From UHGV virus genome UHGV-1383976: 64,000 nt of DNA, one strand, 5' to 3'. Below are positions 17,030 to 64,000 of this stretch, in pieces; the stretch's first letter is position 1, and each line of letters begins with the position of its first letter. Both the position numbers and the translations under genes were made by a program. Below the pieces are notes generated by a model. The model worked only from the letters and a program-made list of their open reading frames with translations. It made no database searches and had not been told where the DNA came from. This stretch comes from a virus.

Positions 17030-17059
17030 TTGACTTTTTCAAAAAATCTTGATATAATA
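17030..17059 (+). promoter_or_regulatory. family-A promoter driving the noncoding region
   Basis: TTGACT-18-TATAAT; downstream transcript is ORF-free. Confidence 0.55.
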
Positions 17060-49309: not shown

Positions 49310-49385
49310 TATATGTAAGATAAAGAAAGAAACAAAACAAAATTAAATGGCGCGTGCGGCCATACCGACGAGAAGGAGAAAGAAA

Positions 49386-49760
49386 ATGACTACTAGAGAG
49401 CTTTATGTTGCAGTTATCAATGGTGAGATGAATGACGAGATGGTTGAGAAGGCTACCGCTCTTCTGGCTACTATGGACAAGGCAAAGGAAACCGCGAAGA
49501 ATAAGCCCAGCAAGGCCGCTCTTGCCAATGAGAAGTATCTGACCTATCTCAAGGCAAATGTGCTGACCAATGAGGGCAAGATTGGTTCCGAGCTGGCCGA
49601 TGCGCTTACCGCGGCTTTTGCAGAGGACTTCAGCGAGAAGCCCTGCTCCGCTACTAAGGTTGCGAGCATCCTCAAGGCCAGTGTCGCTGACGGCACTGTC
49701 GTCAAGGAGAAGACCAAGATCGACAAGAGCGAGCGCACCACTTACGCGCTGGCTGAGTAA
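49386..49760 (+). CDS. GC-rich winged-helix-like protein (paralog of 59395..59766)
   Basis: RBS aaggaga; aligns with the second GC-rich gene (TRELY/TAREFY...KDG..V.EK). Confidence 0.5.
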   Translation: MTTRELYVAVINGEMNDEMVEKATALLATMDKAKETAKNKPSKAALANEKYLTYLKANVLTNEGKIGSELADALTAAFAEDFSEKPCSATKVASILKASVADGTVVKEKTKIDKSERTTYALAE

Positions 49761-50679: not shown

Positions 50680-51441
50680 TTGGAATATGATTTTGAAAGC
50701 CGCAAGAAAGATACGGCTATTGTGAATTTGACAGATGCTTTGAATGTAATAGATCTTTATGAGGATGGAGATTTAGAAAAAGCTCTTGAATTAGCTATTG
50801 GTTTATTAGCCCTAGGATTTGGGGCGTCATTTGAAACAGATGACAGAGAAATACAAAGGTTATTACGTAGTCGAGAATATACATCTGCGCGGGATAACCA
50901 AAAATATTTGAATGTAAAGAATACCAACGCCGCGCGTCAAAGAAATAAGCTTCAGGTTGATGAAATTCTTGATATGCTTAGTAATGGTGCGAAGCAATCA
51001 GTTATGGCTGATTCATTAGCTATACCTTTGGCTACTTTGAAGTATCGAATAAGAGTGATAAAGGAAAAATATCCCGAAGAATATAATGAAGCAATAGAAA
51101 AGTGTAAAAAGTATAAAAAGTATAATGAAGTATCAAAAGGTTGGCGGAATGATAAGGTAAATGATAATGATAAGGATAATGATAAGGTAAATGATAAAGA
51201 TAATGAAAAAGAAGAAGTAGTTGATTCTGGTTATTTTATCAATGGCGATGGTTATATAGAAAGTTTAGGTTTTTATCTTGGAGAAAAGTATAATAAACTT
51301 TGGACTGATTCAGAAAAAATTCGTACAGCTTATTTGAAAAGTCATTTTGATTTTACCGATGAGCAAATTGCTGACATAAATGAGATGGTTGAAGAAGAGA
51401 ATGAATATCAACGCAATGGGGCTGTTGATTTAGGATTGTAA
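50680..51441 (+). CDS. HTH-containing putative transcription regulator (TTG start)
   Basis: region resembling sigma region 4 / LuxR HTH (GAKQSVMADSLAIPLATLKYRIRVIK); KDNDKVNDK repeats. Confidence 0.45.
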   Translation: MEYDFESRKKDTAIVNLTDALNVIDLYEDGDLEKALELAIGLLALGFGASFETDDREIQRLLRSREYTSARDNQKYLNVKNTNAARQRNKLQVDEILDMLSNGAKQSVMADSLAIPLATLKYRIRVIKEKYPEEYNEAIEKCKKYKKYNEVSKGWRNDKVNDNDKDNDKVNDKDNEKEEVVDSGYFINGDGYIESLGFYLGEKYNKLWTDSEKIRTAYLKSHFDFTDEQIADINEMVEEENEYQRNGAVDLGL

Positions 51442-53460
51442 AAAAAGTATAAAAAGTATAAAAAAGATAGCTTTGTGATTTTTTAGTTTTTTTATATGCT
51501 TACTCAAAGGTGCGGCCGCTGTGTAAGTTGAATTTTCCAAAAATTTGGAATGGGTATAAGTCTAACTTACCGTGATGACCTTGCGCGATGGCAACGCTGC
51601 ACCTGTAAATAAGGCAATTGTGCAAGTCAAGTCAAATGTCAAGTCGCTTGTTTCATTTGACATTTGACTTGACACATTTGACATTTGACTTGACAGTGTT
51701 GTTTGGTTTTGATATTTACCTTACTTACAATCTTACCTACACGTGTGTCTTCACCAATTTTGGTAGGAACGCCGCCCTGTAAGTAAGGTAGGAATTTTGG
51801 GATGTTAGAATTTTCCAGAAATTCGGTAAGTGCGGCGTGTTAGAAAAATTCTAGAAATTTTGGGACGTTGAAATTTTCCAAAAATTTCACCGTTGATGGA
51901 GTAAGAAAAATTGTGAAAAATTTGTGAATTTTTCAATTGGACGAAATTTTTAGGACTGCGAATTTTAGGAGAGTAAGTAAGTCTCCTACACTTTATATTG
52001 TAAGTAAGGCAGATAAGTTAACTTATAAGTAAAATATATAAGTAAGACTTATAAGTAAGACTTATAAGTTAACTGTGTGTTCTACTTATAAGTTAATTGT
52101 ATGTCCTACTTATAAGTTAACTGACAGCCCAACCTATAAGTTAACCTAGCGACAAACGGACCCAAGTCCGCCTCGCGGGAGGGAGTACAAGCTCCACCTA
52201 TAAGTCAACTGAATTCCAAACCGCGCGCCCTACTTATAAGTTAACGGGAGGGCATTGTGTGCGGGAAAGCAACTGAGCCAGCGTGTGTGTGTTGTTGTAC
52301 TGTAGCTCTCAACTGCGTAGCCAACCTATAAGTTAGCGAACACGTAAGCGAACGCCCACTCCACAACGCTTGGAAACCTAATGGTCGAGGCCTTGTGCGG
52401 GGTATGGGGAGGCGTTTTTATGACAAAAAAGGGATGGTAGTGCAAACTTTTATACAAAATCAAGTTTTTGATTTCACTATCCCAACACAATATCTTGTGG
52501 TCGACGGTTAGACGGTCGAACAGTTAGCTAACCTATAAGTAATACTTATAAGTAGGGCCTACTTAACCTTTTCTCCAATTTTTGGGGAAATTTTTTTATG
52601 TCAAATTTTGGAAACAAAATGGCGCGGCACGATTGGTTCATCAAAAATATTCTTGCCAGAAATTACCCGTAATTCCACAATTCAACTTATTAATAGTCTT
52701 GTTCGCGCACGTGTTGCCAAAACTTTTCTAGAGTCCAATCCTTCTCTCAAAAAATTTTTCGTGGCTCAGAACGAATAAAATCAGTCGTGATGGTGCGGCA
52801 ACGTTCCAGATGGGGCTTACAGGCGCGCCTTGGAAAATTTTACCAGCCGTGGTAAATTTTGGGAAATTTGTAAAATTTTGGGAACAGCTGCTAGACTGGC
52901 CGGTCGCCGCGATTCGTATCTCGCGTCATCTTTGTGCGGCCAACTCAATGGTCAGAAAAGTTGCTTTTTTTTACAATGTAGCGTTTTGTGATTTGTCATA
53001 CAATAAAAACAGAAATCGCGTATGGAAAATTTTGGAAGCACCGCACAATTATTTCCAGCTTTTCGTTTTAGCTGTTGGGTATATGAAAAATTTGGCGGCC
53101 TCGGTTTTAGGCGGTCTGGCTTTTCCAGCTTTCTCCAGCTTCTTCCAAATTTCCAAAATTTTCCAGCTTATGGTTCAGCTTTTCCAGCCGCTACAGCTGC
53201 AGCTTTTTCAGCTTTTTGACGTCGGCCCTTACGTATCGCCACAGGTGCGGCCACACAAGTAGGTATGGCCTCGCCACGGGATTACGCGCGATTGGTAAAT
53301 TCTGTAAGAAATGGTAAAATTTGGAAGCCGTGGTACTTATTGGATGAATTGTCAAATTCTGGACGAATTGTCAAATTCTGGTAAAAGAATTACCAAATTT
53401 TGGTAAAAAGAATTGTCAAATTCTGGTAAAACTTGAAAATAAAAATTTAGACTACGTTAG
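51442..53460. repeat. 2-kb repeat-rich noncoding region (multiple repeat families)
   Basis: large palindrome GTCAAGTCAAATGTCAAGTC...GACTTGACATTTGAC (51628–51700); TTTTCCAAAAATTT family; ~12× (C)CTATAAGTTAAC (51995–52560); TTTTCCAGC tandem (53090–53225); 3× GAATTGTCAAATTCTGG (53320–53425). Confidence 0.7.
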
Positions 53461-53466
53461 TCTAAA
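53446..53466 (-). promoter_or_regulatory. palindrome TTTAGACTAcgTAGTCTAAA (copy 1)
   Basis: 20-copy inverted-repeat family. Confidence 0.6.
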
Positions 53467-53502
53467 ACAAAAAAACAAAAGGAAGATTTTTCAATCTCCC
53501 TT

Positions 53503-53694
53503 TCATTTCTCATATCTTTCATAACCTATAACTTGAATTTCTTCATCTTCACCATTCACGCGTTTTATATAATAAATATTATTTTCATATTTTACAAGCA
53601 TAATTCTTACATAATCAGCATCTTCGGCGCAAGTTGAAAAAAGTCTTTCATCTTTTATAATTTCACCGTATCTAATAATTTCGTGTGAATCCAT
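53503..53694 (-). CDS. small early protein
   Basis: RBS aaaaggaga; own promoter and terminator. Confidence 0.45.
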   Translation of the reverse strand: MDSHEIIRYGEIIKDERLFSTCAEDADYVRIMLVKYENNIYYIKRVNGEDEEIQVIGYERYEK

Positions 53695-53714
53695 TTTTAA
53701 ATTCTCCTTTTCAT

Positions 53715-53781
53715 TTAGTAATTGTATTATACACCAAAATTCTAAAATGTCAAGCATTATTTTAGACTAACATAGTCTAAA
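53715..53781 (-). promoter_or_regulatory. palindrome (53761–53781) + TTGACA-N-TATAAT promoter
   Basis: minus strand: palindrome, ~20 nt, TTGACA, 16–17 nt, TATAAT, RBS, ATG. Confidence 0.6.
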
Positions 53782-53801
53782 AACAAAAAAAGGAAGATTT
53801 T

Positions 53802-54161
53802 TCAATCTTCCTCGCTCTCGTCTTTCTTCTTTGCTTCACGCTCGGCGGCTTTCGCTTCACGGCGTGCCTTATCGCGTGCTATCTTCTTCTCTTTCTCCGC
53901 GGCTTTCGCGGCGGCCTTCTCCGTCTTTTCAGCAAGTTTGAGCGCGTAGCCCTCGCGCCGTGCGTAGCAGTCGTCTCCATCCTCATCCTTCGGAATTTTT
54001 ATGACTACCTGCACACAACCTTCTTCCCCATCATCGGCAACGACAGGGAAACTAAATACACTTGCCCCTTCAAGTCCTACATCTTCGCCCATTTTCTGCG
54101 CATAGCTCATAAAAAATTCTACAAACTTCGCACGAAGAACATTAGCATTTTTAACAGTCAT
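53802..54161 (-). CDS. early protein, family A copy 1 (acidic; KIPKDEDGDDCY)
   Basis: paralog of 55717..56058. Confidence 0.5.
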   Translation of the reverse strand: MTVKNANVLRAKFVEFFMSYAQKMGEDVGLEGASVFSFPVVADDGEEGCVQVVIKIPKDEDGDDCYARREGYALKLAEKTEKAAAKAAEKEKKIARDKARREAKAAEREAKKKDESEED

Positions 54162-54204
54162 TTTCAAATTCTCCTTTTCTTATTTTGTGAGTAAAGTATA
54201 TCAC

Positions 54205-54270
54205 CATTTTCTATAAAAGTCAATAGTTATTTTTTCAATAATGCCGCGCGATTAGACTACCGTAGTCTAA
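54205..54270 (-). promoter_or_regulatory. palindrome (54252–54270) + TTGACT-17-TATACT promoter
   Basis: as above. Confidence 0.6.
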
Positions 54271-54287
54271 CTTTTATAAAGCAGGAA

Positions 54288-54533
54288 TTACTCCTGCTCA
54301 GTCATTTCATCCTCGGCAGTATCTTCTCTCCAATAAGAGCATTCCCCATCGAATTCGGCTTCTTCAAGGATATAAACCAAACCATCTCTTGCTTCTCGAA
54401 AATCCTTTTCCCATTTGCCATCTTCCTGACTGTATGCATACAGATTATCAAGAATCTTTGCGGCGTGCTTCAAGGCTTCTTCTTCTTCCGAACTAAGAAC
54501 ATACTTCTTTGAAATGCAAGTGCGAACTATCAT
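54288..54533 (-). CDS. early protein, family B copy 1
   Basis: paralog of 56190..56420 (LDNLY...G.WE.DF.EA.D). Confidence 0.5.
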   Translation of the reverse strand: MIVRTCISKKYVLSSEEEEALKHAAKILDNLYAYSQEDGKWEKDFREARDGLVYILEEAEFDGECSYWREDTAEDEMTEQE

Positions 54534-54574
54534 TTTTAAAATCTCCTTTTCATAATTTCTGAATAAATTATAAC

Positions 54575-54632
54575 ACAAATTTTTTGAAAAGTCAAGTTTT
54601 ATTTCTTTTGATTTTAGACTAAGTTAGTCTAA
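54575..54632 (-). promoter_or_regulatory. palindrome (54613–54632) + promoter
   Basis: as above. Confidence 0.55.
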
Positions 54633-54674
54633 TTATGGGATTTTGTGAAAAATTTCACAAGTTGAGTCAAAAAA

Positions 54675-54696
54675 GGAAACGTTTTACAACGTTTCC
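54675..54696 (-). terminator. rho-independent terminator
   Basis: ggaaacgtt/aacgtttcc hairpin. Confidence 0.5.
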
Positions 54697-55556
54697 ATTT
54701 TATTCAAGAAGGCTTCAACTGTTCCAAGTTCGCGGAAGGGAAAATATATAATTCCTATTTCATATTTGCCTTTTGTCCGTTTGTGAATTTCCGCGAAAAT
54801 TTTGCTTTCAATTTCTGCGTCAGAAAGTGCGGTATGCTCTTCATCAAAATCAAAATTATTTTCCAAAAAGCGAAAAGATGTTTCTGCACTTGTCTTGAAA
54901 TATTTCCCGCTTGCCGTTATCCAATCATTATTGACACAAGCCTGCTTGTATTCATCATTATTGAGTAAGTGCCGCGCCGACAAGCCCCACAAATCAAACA
55001 AAGGATAGGCAACGCCATGAAAACGGAAAACTTCGCTTTCAAATTCTTTGCGGCTTTCGTATCTTCTGCCATTTGCGATATACTCACAAGTGCGCTCTTG
55101 CAGGGCAAGCCAAGAATGAAACTGCGCGGAATAAAGATTATTTATGTAAAGCTCTGTAAATGGAATTGCTTTCTTGAAGTCAAACATTGAATTATACGCG
55201 CCTACGGCGGAAACTTCGGACAAATCGCGCTCAAGAACTGATACCGCGCGCTTCCAGTCGGTTAGCTCAATTTCGTCGCGCTCCAGCCGTTCAAGATAAA
55301 TCGGGCGTTTGCTTGCATAGTATGCGGTATCAAAAACGGCAGGAACGCTGAAAATCTCACTTATCAGAAAACTGCGGCGGCGATATACATTTCCTTTTGC
55401 GTCAATTATCTGCCATCCTAAATCATAAATAAGCGGCTTCGCAATAGCAACTTTCTGCTTCGCGTCGGCGGGCAGGTCTGCGGCGCATGGTAGTGTAGCA
55501 GTTTCACAGTCAAGAATCATGTAGTATTTGCGGCGGCGGTCGAGTCTCTTTTCCAT
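54684..55556 (-). CDS. DEDDh 3'-5' exonuclease (DnaQ-like)
   Basis: Exo I LDCETATL, Exo II YNSMFDF, Exo III HTALSDAE. Confidence 0.65.
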   Translation of the reverse strand: MEKRLDRRRKYYMILDCETATLPCAADLPADAKQKVAIAKPLIYDLGWQIIDAKGNVYRRRSFLISEIFSVPAVFDTAYYASKRPIYLERLERDEIELTDWKRAVSVLERDLSEVSAVGAYNSMFDFKKAIPFTELYINNLYSAQFHSWLALQERTCEYIANGRRYESRKEFESEVFRFHGVAYPLFDLWGLSARHLLNNDEYKQACVNNDWITASGKYFKTSAETSFRFLENNFDFDEEHTALSDAEIESKIFAEIHKRTKGKYEIGIIYFPFRELGTVEAFLNKMETL

Positions 55557-55599
55557 TTTTTTCAATTCCTTTTCATATGTTGTCAAGGGTTCGTCTTCG

Positions 55600-55693
55600 C
55601 TCCCTTGCAAGTATTATTATAGCACCACCGCGCAAGAAAGTCAATCGTTAGTTTTTTCACAAGCCCCAATTTTTAGACTAACTTAGTCTAAAA
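55600..55693 (-). promoter_or_regulatory. palindrome (55672–55693) + promoter
   Basis: as above. Confidence 0.55.
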
Positions 55694-55716
55694 AATCCAT
55701 AAAAAAGGGAACTTTT

Positions 55717-56058
55717 TCAAGTCCCCTTTTCGGCCTTTTCGGCCTTCTTCGCTTCGCGGCGCGCTTCATCCTTGGCAATTTTCTTCGCCTTTTCGGCGGC
55801 CTTCTCTTTGGCCTTCTGTGCTTTCTTCTCCTGATTCATGGCGTACTCTTTACGGCGGCTGTAGCAGTCGTCTCCATCCTCATCCTTCGGAATTTTTATG
55901 ACTACCTGCACGCTTCCTTCCTCTCCGTCATCAGCGACAACGGGGAAGCTGAAAATATTTGTGGCTTCAAGGCCAACATCTTCACCGCTTTCCTGTGCAT
56001 ACTCCATAAAAAACTTTATAAACTTTGCCCGCATTGCATTAGCATTTTTTACAGTCAT
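55717..56058 (-). CDS. early protein, family A copy 2
   Basis: paralog of 53802..54161. Confidence 0.5.
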   Translation of the reverse strand: MTVKNANAMRAKFIKFFMEYAQESGEDVGLEATNIFSFPVVADDGEEGSVQVVIKIPKDEDGDDCYSRRKEYAMNQEKKAQKAKEKAAEKAKKIAKDEARREAKKAEKAEKGT

Positions 56059-56094
56059 TTTTCAAGTCTCCTTTTCATTTAGTAATTGTATTAT

Positions 56095-56156
56095 ATCAAA
56101 AGCCGCGCTAATTGTCAATAGTTTTTTTCTGTAAATTTAGACTAAGTTAGTCTAAA
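56095..56156 (-). promoter_or_regulatory. palindrome (56136–56156) + TTGACAAT promoter
   Basis: as above. Confidence 0.6.
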
Positions 56157-56166
56157 AAATATAAAA

Positions 56167-56181
56167 GCGGGATTCTCCCGC
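56167..56181 (-). terminator. rho-independent terminator
   Basis: gcggga ttc tcccgc with a T-run on the minus strand. Confidence 0.55.
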
Positions 56182-56189
56182 ACTTAGGG

Positions 56190-56420
56190 CTAGTTAATTG
56201 AAGTATAATTTTCTTCCCAGAAAGTTCCCATATCATTCTGCTTTAACTCGTTTATAAGATAGTGGATACTATCGTTCGCTTCCTGAAAGTCGCCTTCATA
56301 CTCTCCATGTTCTTCACTCTTATTATAAAGATTGTCAAGAAGCTCTGCGGCCTTGTGGAGTGTGTTTATATCTTCATCTGAAAGAAAATAGCGTTTAGTA
56401 GAGTAAGTCTTGATAATCAT
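56190..56420 (-). CDS. early protein, family B copy 2
   Basis: paralog of 54288..54533. Confidence 0.5.
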   Translation of the reverse strand: MIIKTYSTKRYFLSDEDINTLHKAAELLDNLYNKSEEHGEYEGDFQEANDSIHYLINELKQNDMGTFWEENYTSIN

Positions 56421-56459
56421 TTTCAAAATCCTCTTTTCTTATTTTGTAAGTAAAGTATA

Positions 56460-56521
56460 GCACAATTTTTTTAAAAAGTCAAGTTTCTTTTGCTTGTGGA
56501 TTTAGACTAACTTAGTCTAAA
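56460..56521 (-). promoter_or_regulatory. palindrome (56501–56521) + TTGACT-17-TATACT promoter
   Basis: as above. Confidence 0.6.
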
Positions 56522-56548
56522 CGCATATAAAAAGACTGACGTTTTCTG

Positions 56549-56776
56549 TCAGTCAATTTCAAATACTCCGTCAATGGGAATTACTTCATGAAGTTCATTG
56601 AATGTTGTAATATCTCCATCACAAAGGCGAACTGCGTTCCATTCATTATAGTCGCTATCTTCAATAGAACTTATTTTCATATAGATACTATCTATTTCAT
56701 CAGAAAGAGCGAAGCAATCTCCGCGATTAATCATTCTATATTCTACGGACTTATTGAACTTTCTACGAATTTCCAT
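56549..56776 (-). CDS. small early protein
   Basis: RBS aaagggga. Confidence 0.45.
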   Translation of the reverse strand: MEIRRKFNKSVEYRMINRGDCFALSDEIDSIYMKISSIEDSDYNEWNAVRLCDGDITTFNELHEVIPIDGVFEID

Positions 56777-56814
56777 TTTTATTTCCCCTTTCGTTTTGTA
56801 AATATATAATACCA

Positions 56815-56871
56815 TATGCCGCACGATTTGTCAACAAGTAATTCAATCTGTTTTAGACTACAGTAGTCTAA
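56815..56871 (-). promoter_or_regulatory. palindrome (56852–56871) + promoter
   Basis: as above. Confidence 0.55.
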
Positions 56872-56880
56872 CATTAAAAA

Positions 56881-56896
56881 GACGCCTTATGGCGTC
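56881..56896 (-). terminator. terminator hairpin gacgccttatggcgtc
   Basis: GC hairpin flanked by A/T. Confidence 0.5.
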
Positions 56897-57209
56897 ATCG
56901 CATTATTTGTTCAAAAGATTCAGTATGCCCACATTCATTACAAGTGTAATAATATGTTGTACTCATTGCTGACTTTGCCGCGGCTGTAAATTCATAAGTG
57001 CCGCCACATTCACAAATCCCTTCGTTCCATCGTTCTGCTTGTCCCTCGTTTTGATGACAAAGTGCAAGAGAGATTCCAAGAGCAAGCGCAAGAGCAAGAA
57101 TTATACTAAGAATTTTCCCTATAATAGTATTACAATTTAAAACCATAATTGGGGCAATACAAATAAAGAGAAGCCCCCAAAGAATATAAAAGTAGATACT
57201 TTGAAACAT
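56895..57209 (-). CDS. membrane protein with C-terminal zinc ribbon
   Basis: 2 TM + CECGG...CNECGH. Confidence 0.45.
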   Translation of the reverse strand: MFQSIYFYILWGLLFICIAPIMVLNCNTIIGKILSIILALALALGISLALCHQNEGQAERWNEGICECGGTYEFTAAAKSAMSTTYYYTCNECGHTESFEQIMR

Positions 57210-57244
57210 TGAATCAATTCCTTTCTTAATTTTGTAATTGGATT

Positions 57245-57299
57245 ATAACATAAAATTGCGCGCTTGTCAATCCCCCCCTTTAGACTACATTAGTCTAAA
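57245..57299 (-). promoter_or_regulatory. palindrome (57279–57299) + promoter
   Basis: as above. Confidence 0.55.
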
Positions 57300-57316
57300 A
57301 AGAAAAAGAGGAAGTT

Positions 57317-57520
57317 TTATTCTTCCTCGTCAAAAATACATTCAGCAATAATTTGATGGTAATACCTCATTTTGGATTGCCAAGTGAAATATAAATCACT
57401 AATGCGTTGAAGCTCTTTACTATCTTCTTCATCTAAAATATTTTTTCGTGCGCGGTGTAAATCAGCCGAAAGAGAAAGCAAATCATCTGCAATTTTTTCT
57501 ATGCGTTCAGAATATTTCAT
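57317..57520 (-). CDS. small early protein
   Basis: RBS aaaaggaag. Confidence 0.45.
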   Translation of the reverse strand: MKYSERIEKIADDLLSLSADLHRARKNILDEEDSKELQRISDLYFTWQSKMRYYHQIIAECIFDEEE

Positions 57521-57554
57521 TATTTTAATACTTCCTTTTCTTATTGTGCCTAAA

Positions 57555-57610
57555 GTATATCATAAATCAAAAAAAATGTCAAGTCTTATTTTAGACTAAC
57601 TTAGTCTAAA
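57555..57610 (-). promoter_or_regulatory. palindrome (57588–57610) + promoter
   Basis: as above. Confidence 0.55.
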
Positions 57611-57619
57611 ACCCGAAAC

Positions 57620-57641
57620 GGAAAAGTCAATTTGACTTTCC
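57620..57641 (-). terminator. terminator hairpin ggaaaagtcaa/ttgactttcc
   Basis: hairpin + T-run. Confidence 0.5.
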
Positions 57642-58094
57642 CAAAATTTTCAGAATTTCTAACATTTCCTTTTCACTGAATGAATTTTCTCCCCATTCTT
57701 CACGATTGCGCGCTTCATCATCGAAAAGAATTGCATTTTCGTCATAGAATGAACATACAGTTGACTTCGGTGTTCCATAAGGAACAACACAAATTTCATC
57801 AAAGTGAACACTTTTCAAATGGACAGAAAGCCATTTCTTTTTTGCCGTCTCAATTTCTGCAAGGTATGCCGCGCTTGCTGTCTTGCTTCCCCAAGAAACA
57901 ATACAAAGTTTATATCCCATCTTCTTCAATTTGTTCAACTGTCGCGCGAGTATGCGCATATTGCCGAGTGGGTCTGCGTGCAGATAAGGGCCGACTAATT
58001 TCATTTGCAAATTGTCAAGCCAATTAGGGAACGAATAAAAATCAACTATTGTACCATCCATATCGAAATAAAGTGCAGGCTTGCGATTATACAT
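57627..58094 (-). CDS. HAD-family 5'(3')-deoxyribonucleotidase (NT5C / T5 Dmp-like)
   Basis: N-terminal FDMDGTIVDF HAD motif I. Confidence 0.65.
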   Translation of the reverse strand: MYNRKPALYFDMDGTIVDFYSFPNWLDNLQMKLVGPYLHADPLGNMRILARQLNKLKKMGYKLCIVSWGSKTASAAYLAEIETAKKKWLSVHLKSVHFDEICVVPYGTPKSTVCSFYDENAILFDDEARNREEWGENSFSEKEMLEILKILGKSN

Positions 58095-58129
58095 AAAACA
58101 TAATTTCCTTTCTTATTTTGTAAAATAAG

Positions 58130-58195
58130 TATAACATAATTATGCGGTTTTGTCAAGTTGCTTTTGCTTGTGATTTTAGACTATCTTAGTCTAAA
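58130..58195 (-). promoter_or_regulatory. palindrome (58175–58195) + promoter
   Basis: as above. Confidence 0.55.
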
Positions 58196-58211
58196 TTTAT
58201 TCAAAAAAAAT

Positions 58212-58228
58212 GGGCGGATTCCCCGCCC
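58212..58228 (-). terminator. terminator gggcgg attcc ccgccc + T8
   Basis: hairpin + T-run on the minus strand. Confidence 0.6.
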
Positions 58229-58253
58229 GATTTTCATTTTTATTTTTCCTTTC

Positions 58254-58526
58254 TTAAATTTCTACAGAAACTTTTTCATATCCATCGGCGTCGAAATCAT
58301 CCCATGCGACGTCTTCCATTTCTTTCATAAAGTCAGCGCGAACGCCTTTCTTTTCGTCTTCACTCATGTAAAACAAGCAAAGATGAGAATAATTTTCAAA
58401 AAGCCAATCGCTAAAATTATCGTCGCTTACCGTGTTAGGGTAGTATTCATTTTCTATGGTTTCTTGCGCTTGCTTTTCATTGAGAATTATACCTTTCTCC
58501 CAATTCACATAAAGATTAGCTAACAT
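58254..58526 (-). CDS. small acidic early protein
   Basis: RBS + ATG. Confidence 0.45.
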   Translation of the reverse strand: MLANLYVNWEKGIILNEKQAQETIENEYYPNTVSDDNFSDWLFENYSHLCLFYMSEDEKKGVRADFMKEMEDVAWDDFDADGYEKVSVEI

Positions 58527-58564
58527 TTTATCAATTCCTTTCTTGTTTTCTGTGTCTATTATAC

Positions 58565-58623
58565 TATATGATTTTTAGTTTGTCAATAAGTTTTTCTTTC
58601 TGTTTTAGACTAAAGTAGTCTAA
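58565..58623 (-). promoter_or_regulatory. palindrome (58604–58623) + promoter
   Basis: as above. Confidence 0.55.
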
Positions 58624-58683
58624 TTTTATAAAAAATCTAAAAGGCGGGAGTCCGTCCTTTAGTTTTAAGTTTATTAAAATTTC

Positions 58684-58830
58684 TTAAATTCTTTTTAGCA
58701 AATGCCAAGAACCAATACGGAAAACTACGCGATAAATGCGGCGTCCAATGCGAACCCATTCGTTTCTTCGGAATTTATTGTTTAATGCTCCACCGAAATC
58801 CCAACCGCAGTAACCGAAAATTTCATTCAT
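58684..58830 (-). CDS. small basic early protein (48 aa; not in ORF track)
   Basis: hand-translated MNEIFGYCGWDFGG...; own promoter TTGACA-17-TATAAT + RBS aaaggaag. Confidence 0.35.
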   Translation of the reverse strand: MNEIFGYCGWDFGGALNNKFRRNEWVRIGRRIYRVVFRIGSWHLLKRI

Positions 58831-58864
58831 TGCGTTCACTTCCTTTTCTTGATTACATTATATC

Positions 58865-58920
58865 ACATTTTTAGAGAATGTCAATAATTATTTTTTGATA
58901 TATTAGACTAACTTAGTCTA
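58865..58920 (-). promoter_or_regulatory. palindrome (58902–58920) + promoter
   Basis: as above. Confidence 0.55.
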
Positions 58921-58944
58921 AATTTTTAAAAAAGGGAAGATTTT

Positions 58945-59250
58945 TTAATCTCCCCTTTTATCATAACGGAGCACAAGTTCAAAATCATCATAACTGTCTA
59001 TATAGTGTGCAGTTTGTGGTTCAATTCCAAAGTCCTCGCATACATCCACGGCGGGGGTATCTTCAAAATAATAACAGGTGTCGTGGAAGCTGCTAGTTAT
59101 ATCAATAACAGGAAGTTTATTATTCTCGCCAACTTGACTACCAACAATAAGAAATTTCGGCTCACCTGTTTCATTGCTTCCATGAATTGCATAAAGATTT
59201 TTTATTCCAGTCCGTCCATTTATTACTTTATTAACTTCAAATCTAACCAT
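58945..59250 (-). CDS. small early protein
   Basis: RBS aaaaggaga. Confidence 0.45.
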   Translation of the reverse strand: MVRFEVNKVINGRTGIKNLYAIHGSNETGEPKFLIVGSQVGENNKLPVIDITSSFHDTCYYFEDTPAVDVCEDFGIEPQTAHYIDSYDDFELVLRYDKRGD

Positions 59251-59284
59251 TTTCAAATCTCCTTTTCGTTTTGTGAGTATATAA

Positions 59285-59346
59285 TATCATATATTGTATA
59301 GTTTGTCAATAGAATTTTCAGAAATTTTTAGACTAACTTAGTCTAA
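59285..59346 (-). promoter_or_regulatory. palindrome (59327–59346) + promoter
   Basis: as above. Confidence 0.55.
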
Positions 59347-59364
59347 CTTTCCCCCTAAAAAAAG

Positions 59365-59385
59365 AAATGGGATTATCTCCCATTT
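59365..59385 (-). terminator. terminator aaatggga ttatc tcccattt
   Basis: 8-bp stem + T-run. Confidence 0.55.
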
Positions 59386-59394
59386 CTCTTCGGT

Positions 59395-59766
59395 TTACTT
59401 CTCAACGAAATAAACCTTGCGCTTGCCCACCTTCGGGAACTTGCGCTCTTCCACGCTGATAAGGCCGTCCTTCACAAGTCCACGCGCAATCGCGCCCGCC
59501 TTGTTGTGCGTGACTTCAAGAGCTTCGCCGAGTTCGGTTTCCGTCAGACCGTCACAGCCATCAGCCGACAGTGCTTCGATAATGCCCGCGCGGATAGGCG
59601 CGTTCTCAGTTGCGGACTTCTCGGCGGCCTTGCTCTTGCGCGTATCGTTCCGGCGGTCGAGACTTGCGAGAGCTTCCACGCAATATGCGTTCAGCTCGTC
59701 AGTCAGGTCGTACTTCTCCATCATGGTGGTGTAGAATTCGCGTGCAGTCATCTTCTTGTCGTTCAT
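59395..59766 (-). CDS. GC-rich winged-helix-like protein (paralog of 49386..49760)
   Basis: marked GC excess vs neighbours; aligns with 49386 protein. Confidence 0.5.
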   Translation of the reverse strand: MNDKKMTAREFYTTMMEKYDLTDELNAYCVEALASLDRRNDTRKSKAAEKSATENAPIRAGIIEALSADGCDGLTETELGEALEVTHNKAGAIARGLVKDGLISVEERKFPKVGKRKVYFVEK

Positions 59767-59839
59767 GGTATTTCCTTTCTTAATGGCGCTAAGGTCGCCG
59801 CCCTTATTAGTGAGGGACTTTATCTCCCCTTCACGATTA

Positions 59840-59907
59840 TTATTATATCACAATATCGCGGAAAGTCAACAATTATTTTTCTGGGATTTAGACTAACTTA
59901 GTCTAAA
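59840..59907 (-). promoter_or_regulatory. palindrome (59887–59907) + promoter
   Basis: as above. Confidence 0.55.
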
Positions 59908-59922
59908 TTTTATACAAAAAAG

Positions 59923-59938
59923 AGCGGGTTCCCCGCTC
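59923..59938 (-). terminator. terminator gagcggg ttcc ccgctc
   Basis: hairpin + T-run. Confidence 0.55.
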
Positions 59939-60158
59939 ATTCTTCGATTATAAGTTTATGTTTTACTTCGCAACATATTTCATTGTTATCGACAAAAAAC
60001 AGTTCTCCATTGTCAAGATACATAGCATTGCCTTCATCTGTTGTATCAGTTTTTATGAAAAATTCATTAGGATCGATTTTCTTTACAAGAACAGTCCCGC
60101 GCGGAAAGTAGTCAAATGTTTTATTCTTCTTTTCATTGCGCAAATCTTCAATTATCAT
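59937..60158 (-). CDS. small early protein
   Basis: RBS gaaggaga. Confidence 0.45.
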   Translation of the reverse strand: MIIEDLRNEKKNKTFDYFPRGTVLVKKIDPNEFFIKTDTTDEGNAMYLDNGELFFVDNNEICCEVKHKLIIEE

Positions 60159-60199
60159 TTTTTTATTCTCCTTCAAAAATTTATTTATTTTTTACTGTG

Positions 60200-60271
60200 C
60201 TTATATAATATCATATATAATGTAATTTGTCAATAAAATTTTCAGAAATTTTTAGACTAACTTAGTCTAAA
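60200..60271 (-). promoter_or_regulatory. palindrome (60251–60271) + promoter
   Basis: as above. Confidence 0.55.
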
Positions 60272-60297
60272 ATTCCAGAAAAACCAAAAGGTGGAAA

Positions 60298-60687
60298 TTA
60301 CTTTCCACCAATTGGGCACACGGTTAAGCCGTGTTCTTTAAGGTATTGAATTGCTTTTTCTCCGTCATGGTATTCAAGAATTTGTTGAATTGATGGATGT
60401 GCTTCATCATATTCATTAACTACTACAATATCAATTTCGGGATTTTTCTTTTCTGTTGCAATAGGAAGAAGGCTATCATAATAGCCAAAACGTCGAAGAC
60501 CTTTTCTATTAGTTTCTACCGCAACATCGTTTGTCAAACAGTTATGATGTGCCCATTCGAGCAAATCCCAACTACCGTATTTTATAGATTCTTCTGGAAT
60601 TTCATCGGCAAGTTGGAAATTCGTGCGGCGATTGCACAAAATTTCTTTATTGTAAAAGATAGTTATAAACCGGTAGAACGCTTTCAT
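60298..60687 (-). CDS. hypothetical early protein
   Basis: RBS ggaaaggaag; second gene of a two-gene unit. Confidence 0.45.
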   Translation of the reverse strand: MKAFYRFITIFYNKEILCNRRTNFQLADEIPEESIKYGSWDLLEWAHHNCLTNDVAVETNRKGLRRFGYYDSLLPIATEKKNPEIDIVVVNEYDEAHPSIQQILEYHDGEKAIQYLKEHGLTVCPIGGK

Positions 60688-60905
60688 TTCGTTGCTTCCT
60701 TTCCAATGCCAAATATAAGCTTTACAAGCCACAAAACAAGCCACATCAAAAATGCGGTTTTGGCGCTGAAGGCGAACGCGATAACGCCCAGCTTAGTGAG
60801 CGCCCACCACAGCACCCAAATAAGCCCCAAGGTGATACCTGCGCTAATTGCAGACAAAAGCGTAACAATGAGAATTCCAAGAATTACAGCAATCGTTTTA
60901 TTCAT
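60684..60905 (-). CDS. small membrane protein (2–3 TM)
   Basis: hydrophobic; RBS ggaaaggaa. Confidence 0.4.
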   Translation of the reverse strand: MNKTIAVILGILIVTLLSAISAGITLGLIWVLWWALTKLGVIAFAFSAKTAFLMWLVLWLVKLIFGIGKEATK

Positions 60906-60939
60906 TTTATTAATTCCTTTCCGGTTTTGTGAGTCAAGT

Positions 60940-61002
60940 ATAACACATAAATTTTGGTTTGTCAATAGATTTTGGAAGAAAGGTTAGACTAAGGTAGTCT
61001 AA
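60940..61002 (-). promoter_or_regulatory. palindrome (60984–61002) + promoter
   Basis: as above. Confidence 0.55.
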
Positions 61003-61020
61003 ATTTTGAGCGGGAACTTT

Positions 61021-61332
61021 TCAGTTCCCTTTGTTCCAATCTTCAGAAATGCGATCAAAGACTTCTTCAGACGTAAGCCAACCCTCAACAGAATCGCCAT
61101 TGCGAGTCAGGCCCATTATTTCGAGAAGCCCTTCTTCATGCCCATAACTGCCGCTATGGCAAACTGCGTCACAAATCAATTCATCTCCGTGGCCGTAATA
61201 CCGCACAGAGGGCATCCCCCAAATATATTCTATTCGATAGGGAATTTTTGCCTCTTGCAGAAACCACTCAAGCTTGCCCATTTCAATATATTCTATTTCA
61301 ATTCCATACGAGTCCTTCTTTATTAATTCCAT
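61021..61332 (-). CDS. small early protein (Cys/His-rich)
   Basis: RBS aaaaggaga. Confidence 0.45.
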   Translation of the reverse strand: MELIKKDSYGIEIEYIEMGKLEWFLQEAKIPYRIEYIWGMPSVRYYGHGDELICDAVCHSGSYGHEEGLLEIMGLTRNGDSVEGWLTSEEVFDRISEDWNKGN

Positions 61333-61374
61333 TTTTGAAAATCTCCTTTTCTTATTGTATTTATATAATATCAC

Positions 61375-61431
61375 AAAATTTTTCGTAAATCAACCCACAA
61401 AAATTTCCAATTTAGACTAAGATAGTCTAAA
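61375..61431 (-). promoter_or_regulatory. palindrome (61411–61431) + promoter
   Basis: as above. Confidence 0.55.
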
Positions 61432-61460
61432 AACTCTGAAAAAGTTTGAGCTTCATCGGC

Positions 61461-61640
61461 TCAAACAAATTCTGCAAAAGAGCGTTCCACAGCTCCTGCA
61501 TCTTCACGGCAGCACTCAATCCTTATCAGGTTATCGCCTAGGTGCTCTACAAAGCAGGGGATGTTAGCTTCCAGCAGATTCATTGCTCGAATAAATTCGG
61601 GCGCGTTCGCATCTTCAACATAAATTTCCTTTATATACAT
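61461..61640 (-). CDS. small early protein (59 aa; not in ORF track)
   Basis: hand-translated MYIKEIYVEDANAPEF...; RBS agaaaggaa; terminator gtttgagc/gctcaaac. Confidence 0.35.
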   Translation of the reverse strand: MYIKEIYVEDANAPEFIRAMNLLEANIPCFVEHLGDNLIRIECCREDAGAVERSFAEFV

Positions 61641-61679
61641 TTGGTAATCAATTCCTTTCTCTCAATTTCTGTATTCATT

Positions 61680-61744
61680 ATATCACAAATTTTCTATAAT
61701 GTCAAATCCATTTTCTTTCCAATTTAGACTATGATAGTCTAAAA
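61680..61744 (-). promoter_or_regulatory. palindrome (61723–61744) + promoter
   Basis: as above. Confidence 0.55.
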
Positions 61745-61783
61745 CAAAATTTTTGTAAAAAAATGAGCGGGAGTCAATCCCGC

Positions 61784-62065
61784 TCAATTCCAGCCGCGCA
61801 TTTTCCAGCACAGAGCATTGCCCGGCTGCCCGTAGCAGATGTTCGGATGCAGGATAACCTCGCCTTCGAGGATTCCGAGCTTTTCGTAGAATTCCTCAAT
61901 CAGCACATCGGTAGCCTCAATGCGCGCCTGCTCCAGCGTGTCGGCTGATGGAGCTTCCAGCTCTCCCCAGCTAATAAGGATACTATTCACAATCGGCGGC
62001 AGGCGGTGAGCGTTCGCGGCAACGTAGGCGCAGAGTTCGTTGTAGTTTATGGCGGTAGTAGTCAT
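61784..62065 (-). CDS. hypothetical protein (GC-rich)
   Basis: ORF; RBS. Confidence 0.45.
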   Translation of the reverse strand: MTTTAINYNELCAYVAANAHRLPPIVNSILISWGELEAPSADTLEQARIEATDVLIEEFYEKLGILEGEVILHPNICYGQPGNALCWKMRGWN

Positions 62066-62099
62066 TGGAAAATCCCCTTTTCAAGTATGCCTAATTCTA

Positions 62100-62160
62100 C
62101 CACACATTTGCGGAAAGGTCAATGGCAGAAAATTTCCAATTTAGACTATCATAGTCTAAA
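62100..62160 (-). promoter_or_regulatory. palindrome (62140–62160) + promoter (last copy)
   Basis: as above. Confidence 0.55.
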
Positions 62161-62960: not shown

Positions 62961-63662
62961 TCAAACCGTCTCCGGCAAAGTCATTCCGTCAAATTCGCGG
63001 ATATCGTAGACAGCTTCCGGATTGTAAACATAGCCATAGTTTTCAGCGTACCATGCAAGGAACTTGTGCCATCCTTTATTGCTGGTCTGAATGGAGCGTT
63101 CTTCTTTCGGTCTGCCATGCTTGTCGAAGCCCGTCAGCGTTCTAATCTTGCCGAACTTCTCAAGCCCTGCAAGGAAAAACCACACAGGCATGAGAAGCGC
63201 AGGTGTATGAACTTCCGGAGCTATTCCGGTGAGCTTGGACGGCTTGCCCGTCCAATCAAGACGATAAACCACGAAACGCGGCTTCCCGTCATTCTTCTGA
63301 TATTGCAGGCCACGGTAAAGGCTTTCAACACGTCCGCCGCAGGTTTTGCACTCAAGCGGGCAGAAAACCTTCTGTCCGTCAATCATTACCTGCACAGTGT
63401 TATCCACGTAGCCGTCAAGCGCTACATCCATTTTCTGACTGCGTTCGCGCGTCATTTCAAGCTCAAAAGCGCGGCCACGCGCGCCACAGTTCACGCCTTC
63501 AGCAGGCGCAAGCCCTTCCGACTCTTCCCAGCGCTGAAGATAATAGTTAAGGTTCTTCGCGCGTTCAATCTGGTATTTGTTCATATGCAACTTCCTTTCT
63601 AAATTTGTTGTTTGTTCCCGCTCTGCGGCGTCCACTCCGCGCGGGCGATGTTCAATTTTCAA
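62961..63662 (-). CDS. hypothetical protein (GC-rich, 233 aa)
   Basis: ORF; promoter TTGACT-17-TATAAT at ~63700–63740 with half-site TTTAGACT. Confidence 0.45.
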   Translation of the reverse strand: MKIEHRPRGVDAAEREQTTNLERKLHMNKYQIERAKNLNYYLQRWEESEGLAPAEGVNCGARGRAFELEMTRERSQKMDVALDGYVDNTVQVMIDGQKVFCPLECKTCGGRVESLYRGLQYQKNDGKPRFVVYRLDWTGKPSKLTGIAPEVHTPALLMPVWFFLAGLEKFGKIRTLTGFDKHGRPKEERSIQTSNKGWHKFLAWYAENYGYVYNPEAVYDIREFDGMTLPETV

Positions 63663-63934
63663 AGTTCAATCTTTGCTTTGGGGCTTGTCTCTTGCCCCTT
63701 TGCAATTATGATTATAGCACTTTCCGCGCGAAAGTCAAGGATTTTTAGACTGAAAAATCACACAAGAAAACACTTATTTTTCGGCCCGTTTTTGTTCAAA
63801 ATGACGGACAAACTATTACCAAACTTTTACTAGAACTTTCCTAAAATTTACAAATGACAAATTGTGAAATATTTAACAAGCTGGGGCGCCCATATTTTGG
63901 TAAATGGGCTTCCAGTTTCTTCCAGTGGGTCGGG

Positions 63935-64000
63935 GCCTCCAAACAAATTTGCAAAAATTTCAAAATTCAAATTTGCAAAAATTTCAAAATTCAAATTTGC
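63935..64000. repeat. tandem direct repeat CAAATTTGCAAAAATTTCAAAATT (≥2.5 copies, continues past the window end)
   Basis: exact 26-nt period. Confidence 0.6.

Follow-up and report, generated by a model that had tools for sequence, protein, structure and literature searches.

The early region of this phage carries a repeated 21-bp palindrome that is linked to promoters and spaced from them in whole turns of the DNA helix. In addition, homology between the window and related phages breaks preferentially at the cassettes that contain the palindrome, which makes these cassettes junctions of gene shuffling as well. On the strength of sequence patterns, we give a probability of roughly 55% to the reading that the palindrome is an operator, bound by a dimeric, sequence-specific protein that would act from one helix face on RNA polymerase.

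Results

The window, that is, the whole 64-kb stretch of DNA that was analyzed, comes from an uncultured gut phage of ~130 kb. A scan for TTTAGACTA-N3-TAGTCTAAA that allowed up to two mismatches returned 20 copies between 53446 and 62160, against a chance expectation of 0.01, and zero further copies in the rest of the window. Copy number and coordinates thus agree with the original prediction, which had described a 20-bp element with a 2-nt center. Because a pattern with a 2-nt center matched nothing and one with a 3-nt center matched all 20, the element is 21 bp long. Features from the motif and promoter scan are listed below; the gap is the distance in nucleotides from palindrome to -35.

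53446..62160, minus: array of early genes; 19 promoter-gene-terminator units delimited by 20 palindromes
62094..62160, minus: cassette 1; palindrome 62140-62160; -35 at 62122, -10 end 62094 (TTGACC-17-TAGAAT); gap 17
61677..61743, minus: cassette 2; palindrome 61723-61743; promoter 61705..61677 (TTGACA-17-TATAAT); gap 17
61365..61431, minus: cassette 3; palindrome 61411-61431; promoter 61393..61365 (TTGATT-17-TATTAT); gap 17
60937..61003, minus: cassette 4; palindrome 60983-61003; promoter 60965..60937; gap 17; two genes downstream
60205..60271, minus: cassette 5; palindrome 60251-60271; promoter 60233..60205; gap 17
59842..59907, minus: cassette 6; palindrome 59887-59907; promoter 59869..59842; gap 17; ahead of winged-helix gene 59395-59766
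59281..59347, minus: cassette 7; palindrome 59327-59347; promoter 59309..59281; gap 17
58857..58922, minus: cassette 8; palindrome 58902-58922; promoter 58884..58857; gap 17
58558..58624, minus: cassette 9; palindrome 58604-58624; promoter 58586..58558; gap 17
58128..58195, minus: cassette 10; palindrome 58175-58195; promoter 58156..58128; gap 18; ahead of HAD-like nucleotidase gene
57554..57610, minus: cassette 11; palindrome 57590-57610; promoter 57582..57554; gap 7
57242..57299, minus: cassette 12; palindrome 57279-57299; promoter 57270..57242; gap 8
56806..56872, minus: cassette 13; palindrome 56852-56872; promoter 56834..56806; gap 17
56454..56521, minus: cassette 14; palindrome 56501-56521; promoter 56482..56454; gap 18
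56090..56156, minus: cassette 15; palindrome 56136-56156; promoter 56118..56090; gap 17; ahead of f2 gene 55717-56058
55616..55692, minus: cassette 16; palindrome 55672-55692; promoter 55644..55616; gap 27; ahead of exonuclease-like gene 54684-55556
54567..54633, minus: cassette 17; palindrome 54613-54633; promoter 54595..54567; gap 17
54195..54271, minus: cassette 18; palindrome 54251-54271; promoter 54223..54195; gap 27; ahead of f2 paralogue 53802-54161
53726..53781, minus: cassette 19; palindrome 53761-53781; promoter 53753..53726; gap 7
53446..53466, no strand: terminal palindrome at the array end, without a convincing promoter
55717..56058, minus: f2 family member, 113 aa; acidic alpha/beta head and K/E/A-rich helical tail
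53802..54161, minus: f2 paralogue, 119 aa
59395..59766, minus: winged-helix protein, 123 aa, MarR-like fold; candidate reader
63711..63752, minus: first early promoter, TTGACT-16-TATAAT, with half-site CAGTCTAAA only; four-gene operon without palindrome

The arms had been described as perfect over 9 bp. An 8-bp core (TTAGACTA/TAGTCTAA) is indeed invariant in 20/20 copies, but the ninth, outermost position deviates in seven, with no compensating change in the opposite arm. Information content is concentrated in the two 8-bp arms, whose cores lie 10 bp apart center to center, and the 3-nt center is unconstrained. Most mismatches are found at arm positions 1, 2, and 8; positions 3 to 7 are near-invariant. 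Because the outer deviations are uncompensated and hybrid sites pair two different arms (5/22 in L114, 11/16 in L117), it is the sequence that is conserved and not base pairing.

A minus-strand sigma70-type promoter follows 19 of the 20 palindromes, the terminal copy at 53446 being the exception to the claim that every copy has one. These promoters match 9 to 12 of 12 hexamer positions, and 17 of the 19 carry an extended -10 TG, giving the near-consensus form TTGACA-17-TGnTATAAT. The proposed uniform gap of ~19 to 22 nt was not recovered. Instead, the gap is 17 to 18 nt in 14 copies, 7 to 8 nt in three (57590, 57279, and 53761), and 27 nt in two (55672 and 54251), so that the single center proposed at -66 gives way to a ladder of positions near -63, -53, and -73 in the usual numbering, as inferred from the predicted promoters.

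The same ladder extends through related metagenomic phages, where 682 unique promoter-linked sites form clusters with mean gaps of 7.8, 17.2, 27.8, 38.5, 48.4, and 59 nt, which corresponds to a slope of 10.3 bp for each step. Of the 682 sites, 647 deviate from the ladder by no more than 1 nt, compared with about 136 expected under uniform spacing. The fixed lengths do not reflect inherited copies, since the gap-17 spacers comprise 76 different sequences with a pairwise identity of 38% (30% expected from composition). Other relatives have strong early promoters without any palindrome, and because these are equal in strength, the palindrome is a modulator and not a part of the core promoter.

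The spacing also bears on the idea that an RNA polymerase encoded by the phage or carried in its virion uses the palindrome as a hairpin promoter, in which case every early gene would have two promoters. N4 early promoters likewise consist of a short stem with a 3-nt loop. Yet a second promoter would not need strict phasing to a consensus host promoter, and a perfect palindrome with an unconstrained center has no direction. The longest open reading frame in the window is at most 563 aa, and none of those scanned matched an RNA polymerase. We regard an N4-like function as extremely improbable.

As originally proposed, the palindrome is not a terminator: distinct GC-rich terminators sit upstream of the palindromes in the window. 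In relatives, a terminator accompanies 318 of 335 copies at distances that vary continuously from 0 to 20 nt, and therefore the placement of the palindrome follows the promoter. The units are not all monocistronic, as unit 60983 contains two genes. The predicted half-site (CAGTCTAAA, 63744-63752) is present and kept in close relatives; only 5 nt separate it from the -35, which puts it out of register, and outside the array half-sites with one mismatch occur no less often than expected by chance. The promoterless copy at 53446 follows the last terminator and is conserved in relatives, so that n units have n + 1 sites.

Homology breakpoints between the window and its relatives cluster at the cassettes, with 69% lying within 60 bp of a palindrome center (random placement, 27%; maximum of 2,000 trials, 51%) and many falling exactly at the palindrome edge. 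It is possible, though unlikely, that the palindrome is primarily a boundary or recombination module and any regulatory effect secondary. The terminator-palindrome-promoter block would then be kept as homology for early-gene exchange within and between coinfecting phages, and motif classes would mark gene-exchange communities. The 20 sites for 19 units, including the promoterless terminal copy, are consistent with this, as are tandem gene duplications within the early array, the homogeneity of copies within a genome as opposed to the different classes between genomes, and the similar behavior of T4-type PeSLs (PMC2839356, PMC4122927). However, recombination requires homology, not a dyad, and a boundary role predicts neither a 10.3-bp ladder over unrelated spacers nor near-invariant positions 3 to 7 around a free center. 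No recombinase was found among the early genes, and to our knowledge, neither serine nor tyrosine recombinases use core sites with this odd 9-3-9 geometry. The original prediction listed a mobile, MITE-like repeat only as a refutation; the junction role is real, but in relatives the link between motif and promoter is never lost, so this refutation does not hold.

Related phages use the same 21-bp format with other arms (TTAGACGT, TTAGATGT, TTAGGTGT, and TGGGACGT), which have changed together across 10 to 30 sites, symmetrically in both arms, with format and phasing retained. The TTAGACTA motif is unchanged across clades whose early proteins are only 30 to 55% identical, and at least six classes occur side by side among the phages of one metagenome. 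Identical motifs in deeply diverged clades, with related phages differing in class, could mean that the reader is a borrowed host transcription factor and that classes follow host taxa. In the related-phage loci compared, no phage protein covaries with motif class and no protein family is specific to the TTAGACTA class. Even so, we consider a host factor very unlikely. Across 185,579 bacterial and archaeal genomes, the exact motif occurred at chance level (six singletons in unrelated phyla compared with about nine expected), along with one phage-like 3-kb contig. A host factor is also at odds with the number of classes in a single metagenome and leaves unexplained the perfect co-occurrence with f2, unless f2 is a cofactor.

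Of the proteins proposed as readers, the winged-helix candidates (59395-59766 and 49347-49760) proved to belong to a multiparalogue family that is independent of palindromes, being present in palindrome-free relatives too, and whose recognition helices differ among phages with identical motifs. By contrast, the f2 family was found in 34/34 palindrome-bearing and 0/11 palindrome-free loci (exonuclease anchored), in at least three independent lineages, and all five loci reached from f2 homologues alone had palindromes, including an unrelated GC palindrome. Its subtypes are common to several motif classes and do not covary with arm sequence; its head is acidic, and no DNA-binding fold was recognizable in it. 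Recognition of shape, as a small DNA cruciform or a read-through RNA hairpin, by a shape-specific protein (perhaps f2) would account for the presence of f2 alongside palindromes whatever their sequence. Arms are perfect in 91% of sites, there is a weak excess of sense-strand G.T over A.C mismatches (32 versus 18), and the symmetric arm differences between classes fit as well. We judge this structural reading quite unlikely.

Discussion

The original prediction proposed that one dimeric protein controls about 20 promoters from upstream. The 10.3-bp ladder, the cores 10 bp apart, the conserved sequence, and the classes with other arms agree with that proposal; the comparison of protein families turned up no reader. 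In the operator model, a dimer would place two reading heads in successive major grooves, on the same helix face as RNA polymerase at the adjacent host-type promoter, which it would contact, most probably at the flexible C-terminal domain of alpha. With the site ahead of 19 of the 20 early promoters, a single protein could control how active the early, host-takeover-like genes are as a group. Coordinate early shutoff seems more likely, with activation a minority alternative, because at near-consensus promoters added stabilizing contacts tend to trap polymerase.

There is precedent for such an arrangement. The p4 dimer of phi29 binds an upstream dyad at A2c/A3 and acts on the alpha subunit of the host polymerase from the same face; by overstabilizing polymerase, it represses A2c, a strong early promoter (Monsalve et al. 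1996, PMC38568, as cited in PMC11806353). With polymerase-stabilizing factors, a stronger promoter means more repression (PMC11806353). Overstabilization at strong early promoters is the role that we propose here by analogy. The p4 system differs in having few sites of another format in a single control region, and no p4 homologue was recognized here.

Other systems share some of these features. The CRP dyad of class I sites is about 21 to 22 bp and is allowed only at positions one helical turn apart, out to about -95. However, class I promoters are weak and activator dependent, whereas those described here are near-consensus with an extended -10, and in the wider family the palindrome sits most often on an additional rung near -53/-54. 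The stoperators of Cluster A mycobacteriophages also comprise tens of copies of one operator, through which a single repressor silences the genome, but they are asymmetric, 13 bp long, and orientation dependent, and they block elongation from inside transcribed regions. In Cluster O mycobacteriophages, a 17-bp invariant inverted repeat (TGTTCGGNNNCCGAACA) with a free 3-nt center is present in more than 30 copies per genome (PMC4351075). Unlike the palindromes of our array, those copies are genome-wide, often near or inside gene starts, and not tied to the 8 to 9 predicted SigA promoters; helical phasing and variant classes are not reported for them (PMC4351075).

The PeSLs of T4-type phages combine a terminator, an AT-rich region, a strong sigma70-type early promoter, and a Shine-Dalgarno sequence before small orphan early genes (PMC2839356, PMC4122927). 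Like our cassettes, they form repeated composite blocks in a plastic region and mark the junctions at which genes are inserted, deleted, or replaced. The stem-loop that PeSLs conserve is the GC-rich terminator itself. Our array instead has variable terminators apart from the conserved element, which is an additional AT-rich 21-bp dyad, invariant in sequence and phased to the -35. The phages described here, whose hosts are probably Firmicutes, are unrelated to T4. As a secondary effect, the conserved cassette may provide shared homology for the swapping of early genes between phages. If our main interpretation is true, a single protein would switch about 20 early genes together.

The palindrome and its promoters

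A pattern scan of the window for TTTAGACTA-N3-TAGTCTAAA, allowing up to two mismatches, returned 20 matches (0.01 expected by chance), which all lie at 53446-62160, with none elsewhere. This confirmed the number and location of copies in the original prediction. However, the 20-bp form with a 2-nt center that had served as its title had no match, and the element is therefore 21 bp long. The 9-bp arms, which had been described as perfect, are intact over their 8-bp cores in 20/20 copies, but their outermost position deviates in seven, without compensation. Information content lies in the two 8-bp arms, with a free 3-nt center and a weaker outer T/A. When all classes of relatives were pooled, the arms were perfect in 91% of 688 promoter-linked sites, and mismatches were concentrated at positions 1, 2, and 8. 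The two conserved cores have their centers 10 bp apart, a spacing classically associated with a dimer that reads two successive major grooves. The early-array features used below are as follows.

Features of the early array
53446-62160: 20 palindromes, with early promoters on the minus strand
53802-54161 and 55717-56058: window members of f2, a small-protein family
54684-55556: exonuclease, the anchor gene for fetching relatives
59395-59766: winged-helix protein

Read on the minus strand, 19/20 palindromes lead into a TTGACA-16/17-TATAAT-type promoter, as identified by promoter scoring and by an independent promoter scan. These promoters have 9-12 of 12 hexamer matches and AT-rich spacers, with an extended -10 TG in 17 of the 19; downstream of each is an AAAGGAG-type ribosome site and then a small ORF. 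A promoter had been claimed after every palindrome, which holds for all copies except the one at 53446, which has none that is convincing and closes the array. The array thus consists of 19 units bounded by 20 sites. Apart from a nucleotidase and the exonuclease, Pfam and PHROG searches assigned none of the early proteins.

Several known elements can be set against the palindrome. Its stem has only 2 G-C pairs among 9, it is AT-rich with no T-run after it, and it is followed by a spacer and a promoter; a terminator scan passed 1/20 copies, and only with the flanks included. GC-rich hairpin terminators with T-runs instead sit 5' of the palindromes, and a separate, nonconserved hairpin of this kind lies 0-20 nt upstream in 318/335 copies across relatives. 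These observations uphold the earlier statement that the palindrome is not an intrinsic terminator. Integron attC sites are imperfect 57-141-bp palindromes with extrahelical bases, and recombinase core sites place their arms on either side of a crossover spacer of 2 bp or 6-8 bp; the perfect 9-3-9 dyad of 21 bp matches neither format, and the early genes scanned included no integrase or recombinase. N4-type hairpin promoters are directional, conserved hairpins used by a giant virion RNA polymerase, but the dyad described here is symmetric with a free center, and no ORF in the window exceeds 563 aa. The dre site of Streptococcus pneumoniae NagR, a literature match to both half-site strings, is a different motif. 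An Rfam search with the palindrome gave no family match and a single sub-threshold hit.

Hybrid sites with two different arms make up 5/22 copies in one related locus (L114) and 11/16 in another (L117). Moreover, arm deviations in promoter-linked sites across classes are mostly uncompensated, and the mismatches in these sites have a weak sense-strand wobble bias (32 vs 18). Together, these patterns lead us to favor recognition of the palindrome by sequence over recognition by base pairing.

Two observations concern individual early genes. Long leaders, at 59800-59840, 55585-55615, and 63670-63705, precede the early genes that are richer in GC and better conserved (winged helix, exonuclease, and first operon); each leader begins with a stable stem-loop directly after the predicted start site, and these stem-loops may be 5' mRNA-stabilizing hairpins. 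In addition, the 207-aa product of the first gene of the palindrome-free operon (62961-63584) contains a D...ECK motif suggestive, by eye, of a PD-(D/E)xK nuclease, and had no Pfam or PHROG match.

Helical phasing of the sites

The palindrome had been placed at a uniform distance of about 19-22 nt from the -35 box. The gap to the -35 in the window is instead 17-18 nt (n = 14), 7-8 nt (n = 3), or 27 nt (n = 2). Motif scans provided a larger sample, consisting of three IMG/VR contigs and about 45 multicopy metagenomic loci from gut and rumen, including contigs of ~132 kb. A strong promoter was present at 300/335 unique copies of the window's motif in this sample, with gaps of 7 (n = 86), 8 (28), 17 (121), 18 (34), 27-29 (13), and 48-49 nt (9), and almost nothing between these clusters. 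Across 682 sites from all variant classes, the cluster means were 7.8, 17.2, 27.8, 38.5, 48.4, and 59, and the slope was 10.3 bp for each step. Of these sites, 647 fell within ±1 nt of the ladder, compared to about 136 expected under uniform spacing.

The phasing does not reflect common ancestry of whole cassettes (i.e., a palindrome with its promoter), since the 76 distinct gap-17 spacers have a pairwise identity of 38% versus the 30% expected from composition. Furthermore, the distance from the upstream terminator to the palindrome is continuous over 0-20 nt, whereas the distance to the promoter follows a fixed ladder; the palindrome is therefore placed relative to the promoter and on one face of the helix. 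In conventional numbering, the predicted promoters would put the palindrome centers near -53/-54, -63, -74, -84, and -95. As a cis-element, the palindrome is robustly documented.

Relatives with and without the palindrome

Using the conserved early exonuclease, we fetched 44 viral loci at 47-95% identity. They include groups with a common 21-bp format in which both arms differ from group to group.

Palindrome classes
21-bp class, TTAGACTA: window's clade
21-bp class, TTAGACGT: exonuclease-anchored relatives
21-bp class, TTAGATGT: exonuclease-anchored relatives
21-bp class, TTAGGTGT: exonuclease-anchored relatives
21-bp class, TGGGACGT: exonuclease-anchored relatives
Additional group, TAATACGTT-N-AACGTATTA: exonuclease-anchored relatives

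Phasing was identical in 5/5 of the 21-bp classes, and the commonest gap outside the window's clade was 8. The motif TTAGACTA is retained unchanged even where the early proteins of a clade share only 30-55% identity with those of the window, and variants at inner positions are mixed within some genomes. Nine relatives are palindrome-free, with equally strong early promoters and A-rich upstream regions; the number rises to eleven with L089 and L090, which are counted here because their GGAACAA palindrome is not promoter-linked. The equal strength of these promoters argues that the palindrome is an accessory layer on promoters predicted to work without it.

A different repeated upstream element, roughly TTTGTGCAAnnTGACGAA, occurs in palindrome-free loci L088, L091-L095, L097, and L089 (e.g., L091:8034 and L092:8435), before a subset of promoters having TAGACA or TTGACT -35 boxes. 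Among cultured phages, the nearest by protein are ~140-kb Enterococcus phages, with an exonuclease identity of 28%. Megablast of the early array against deposited phages gave no match, and f2 had no protein match in cultured phages.

Cassettes as points of gene exchange

When the window was compared to its 80-95% identical relatives, 69% of homology breakpoints fell within 60 bp of a palindrome center, versus 27% under random placement (maximum of 51% in 2000 trials), and many were exactly at the palindrome edge. A tandem two-gene duplication also flanks the exonuclease (56190-56420 and 55717-56058 versus 54288-54533 and 53802-54161), each copy with its own palindrome-promoter cassette. On this comparative evidence, the role of the cassettes as boundaries is real. 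Yet such a role does not explain the phasing, and we therefore treat it as a consequence rather than as the primary function.

Candidate readers of the palindrome

HTH/winged-helix proteins, including those at 59395-59766 and 49386..49760, had been named as candidate binders. The 123-aa product of 59395-59766 has a predicted fold with a long helix and a winged helix (mean pLDDT, 87.7) that best matches MarR-family repressors, and its homologues at 43-98% identity do not vary in the wing or at the start of the putative recognition helix (THNKAG). In deeper clades with an identical DNA motif, however, the helix reads SPNKAG, TPAQVT, or DSTSKA, and helix types are common to different motif classes. 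The family, with its long N-terminal helix and wHTH, has two to five paralogues per genome (including 49347-49760) in every related phage (L081-L124), and it is found in every palindrome-free relative. The variable helix, multiple paralogues, and presence without palindromes mean that the winged helix is not backed as a universal reader. Separately, the C-terminal part of the 253-aa product of 50680-51441 contains an HTH similar by eye to sigma region 4 or to a LuxR-type HTH, and the corresponding region in related locus L003 reads MTQAEIGEALGISRQTVNSRI; a sigma-like or late regulator of the phage is a possible role for this protein.

An exact-motif scan of 185,579 prokaryotic genomes recovered chance-level singletons and one phage-like fragment, and thus gave no sign of a host regulon. 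A search among the proteins of the loci found no family specific to the TTAGACTA class.

An unbiased presence/absence screen returned one family with a perfect profile, the 113/119-aa paralogues of f2. This family is present in 31/31 loci with a 21-bp palindrome and in three TAATACGTT loci, and in 0/11 palindrome-free loci. The lineages lacking both palindrome and f2 have at least three origins on the exonuclease tree, and because the f2 gene adjoins the anchor gene, its absence is not a coverage artifact. Five loci were reached only via distant f2 homologues, and 5/5 carry promoter-upstream palindromes: three (L127, L131, and L132) have the known format and phasing, and two (L125 and L128) have an unrelated GC palindrome, GCGCCCGGGCGC. 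The latter is 12-14 bp long (e.g., L125 positions 7114 and 8110) and lies directly after hairpins without T-runs; GTTCAYA direct repeats separate it from the early promoters about 27 nt downstream. A profile scan for f2 loci, which keyed on the low-complexity tail, returned three loci only.

The f2 protein consists of an acidic alpha-beta-beta-beta head and a K/E/A-rich 45-residue helix. It had no relative in Pfam or PDB sequence searches, and its subtypes are common to different motif classes. The alpha-beta-beta-beta-alpha order had raised the suspicion of a dsRBD-like shape reader, for which fold searches gave no support and no significant match. The acidic head, the lack of Pfam, PDB, or fold matches, and the class-crossing subtypes make f2 unlike a sequence reader. 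We consider it unlikely that the palindromes and f2 are a new regulatory pair, in which f2 would read the shape of the dyad or adapt RNA polymerase at every early promoter, while rapidly diversifying arms would sort co-infecting gut phages into mutually incompatible "early-gene exchange groups." Possible readers are a phage protein whose gene lies beyond the fetched loci, f2 in the role of shape reader or adaptor, and a host factor.

Proposed shut-off or activation of the early genes

Placement on one face at whole turns is the rule for class I activators and for p4 of phage phi29. We propose that a protein bound to the palindrome would contact, on one face of the DNA, a part of RNA polymerase that is flexibly tethered, and for such a contact the permitted positions are expected to form a ladder reaching to about -95. 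A class I activator position, which the original prediction gave as an option beside that of an upstream repressor, is consistent with this ladder, as CRP-like sites are also held to one face at integral turns upstream. However, CRP-like promoters are intrinsically weak and activator-dependent, while those of the window are near-consensus with an extended -10, and those of palindrome-free relatives are equally strong. According to references cited in PMC11806353, p4 represses the strong A2c promoter via the polymerase alpha subunit, and repression by polymerase-stabilizing factors is greater on stronger promoters (PMC11806353). Given near-consensus promoters, this precedent leads us to prefer coordinate shut-off of the early genes over their activation, at odds of roughly 60:40.

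Other features of the window

Beyond the early array, the window encodes an RtcB RNA ligase (36359-37564; Pfam E = 3e-58), which possibly repairs cleaved tRNAs, along with an ATP-dependent ligase, a UvrD-type helicase, and an SPFH protein. Apart from the early promoters, strong sigma70-type promoters occur in the window only at 17030, 45945, and 47708 (plus strand). Most plus-strand genes are without a recognizable host-type promoter, and this implies that middle and late genes use another class of promoter. The region at 52000-53440, where the convergent plus-strand block gives way to the early array, is about 1.4 kb of noncoding, repeat-packed DNA that looks like an origin or packaging region.

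Repeats flanking the early array
52047-52337: iterons ACTTATAAGTTAA, 24-bp spacing
53346-53431: GAATTGTCAAATTCTGG-type repeats
63944-63991: 24-bp tandem repeat CAAATTTGCAAAAATTTCAAAATT, upstream edge of the early array

In related locus L007, genes beyond the CAAATTTGCAAAAATTTCAAAATT repeat run divergently.

Known systems and significance

The cassettes resemble the PeSL elements of T4-type phages in their strong sigma70-like early promoter, AT-rich upstream region, SD, and start codon, and as gene-exchange points in a hyperplastic region. In PeSLs, the conserved stem-loop is the GC-rich terminator itself, and the cassettes shuffle genes (PMC2839356, PMC4122927), whereas the conserved dyad of the window is AT-rich and its terminator is separate and nonconserved. 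The mechanism proposed here is that of phi29 p4, whose sites are few. The 7-3-7 repeat of Cluster O mycobacteriophages is alike in format, and its reader is also not known, but it is not promoter-linked (PMC4351075). No operator that is at once phased, regulon-wide, and diversifying was described in the literature searched.

The natural spacings of 7, 17, 27, 38, and 48 nt at otherwise equivalent promoters are a built-in experiment on how distance relates to activation or polymerase trapping, and five or more arm variants would, when the reader is identified, provide synthetic biology with ready orthogonal operator/regulator pairs. If the pairing with f2 were true, one element would be both a genome-wide switch and a barcode for modular recombination. 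More generally, our findings extend the PeSL idea, that is, regulatory cassettes as gene-shuffling units, beyond T4-like phages and add a sequence-specific layer. Were one dimer to control some 20-30 consensus promoters from helically phased upstream sites, this would be a very clean natural face-of-the-helix regulon, and one found in a group of ~130-kb gut and rumen phages that is abundant and uncultured.
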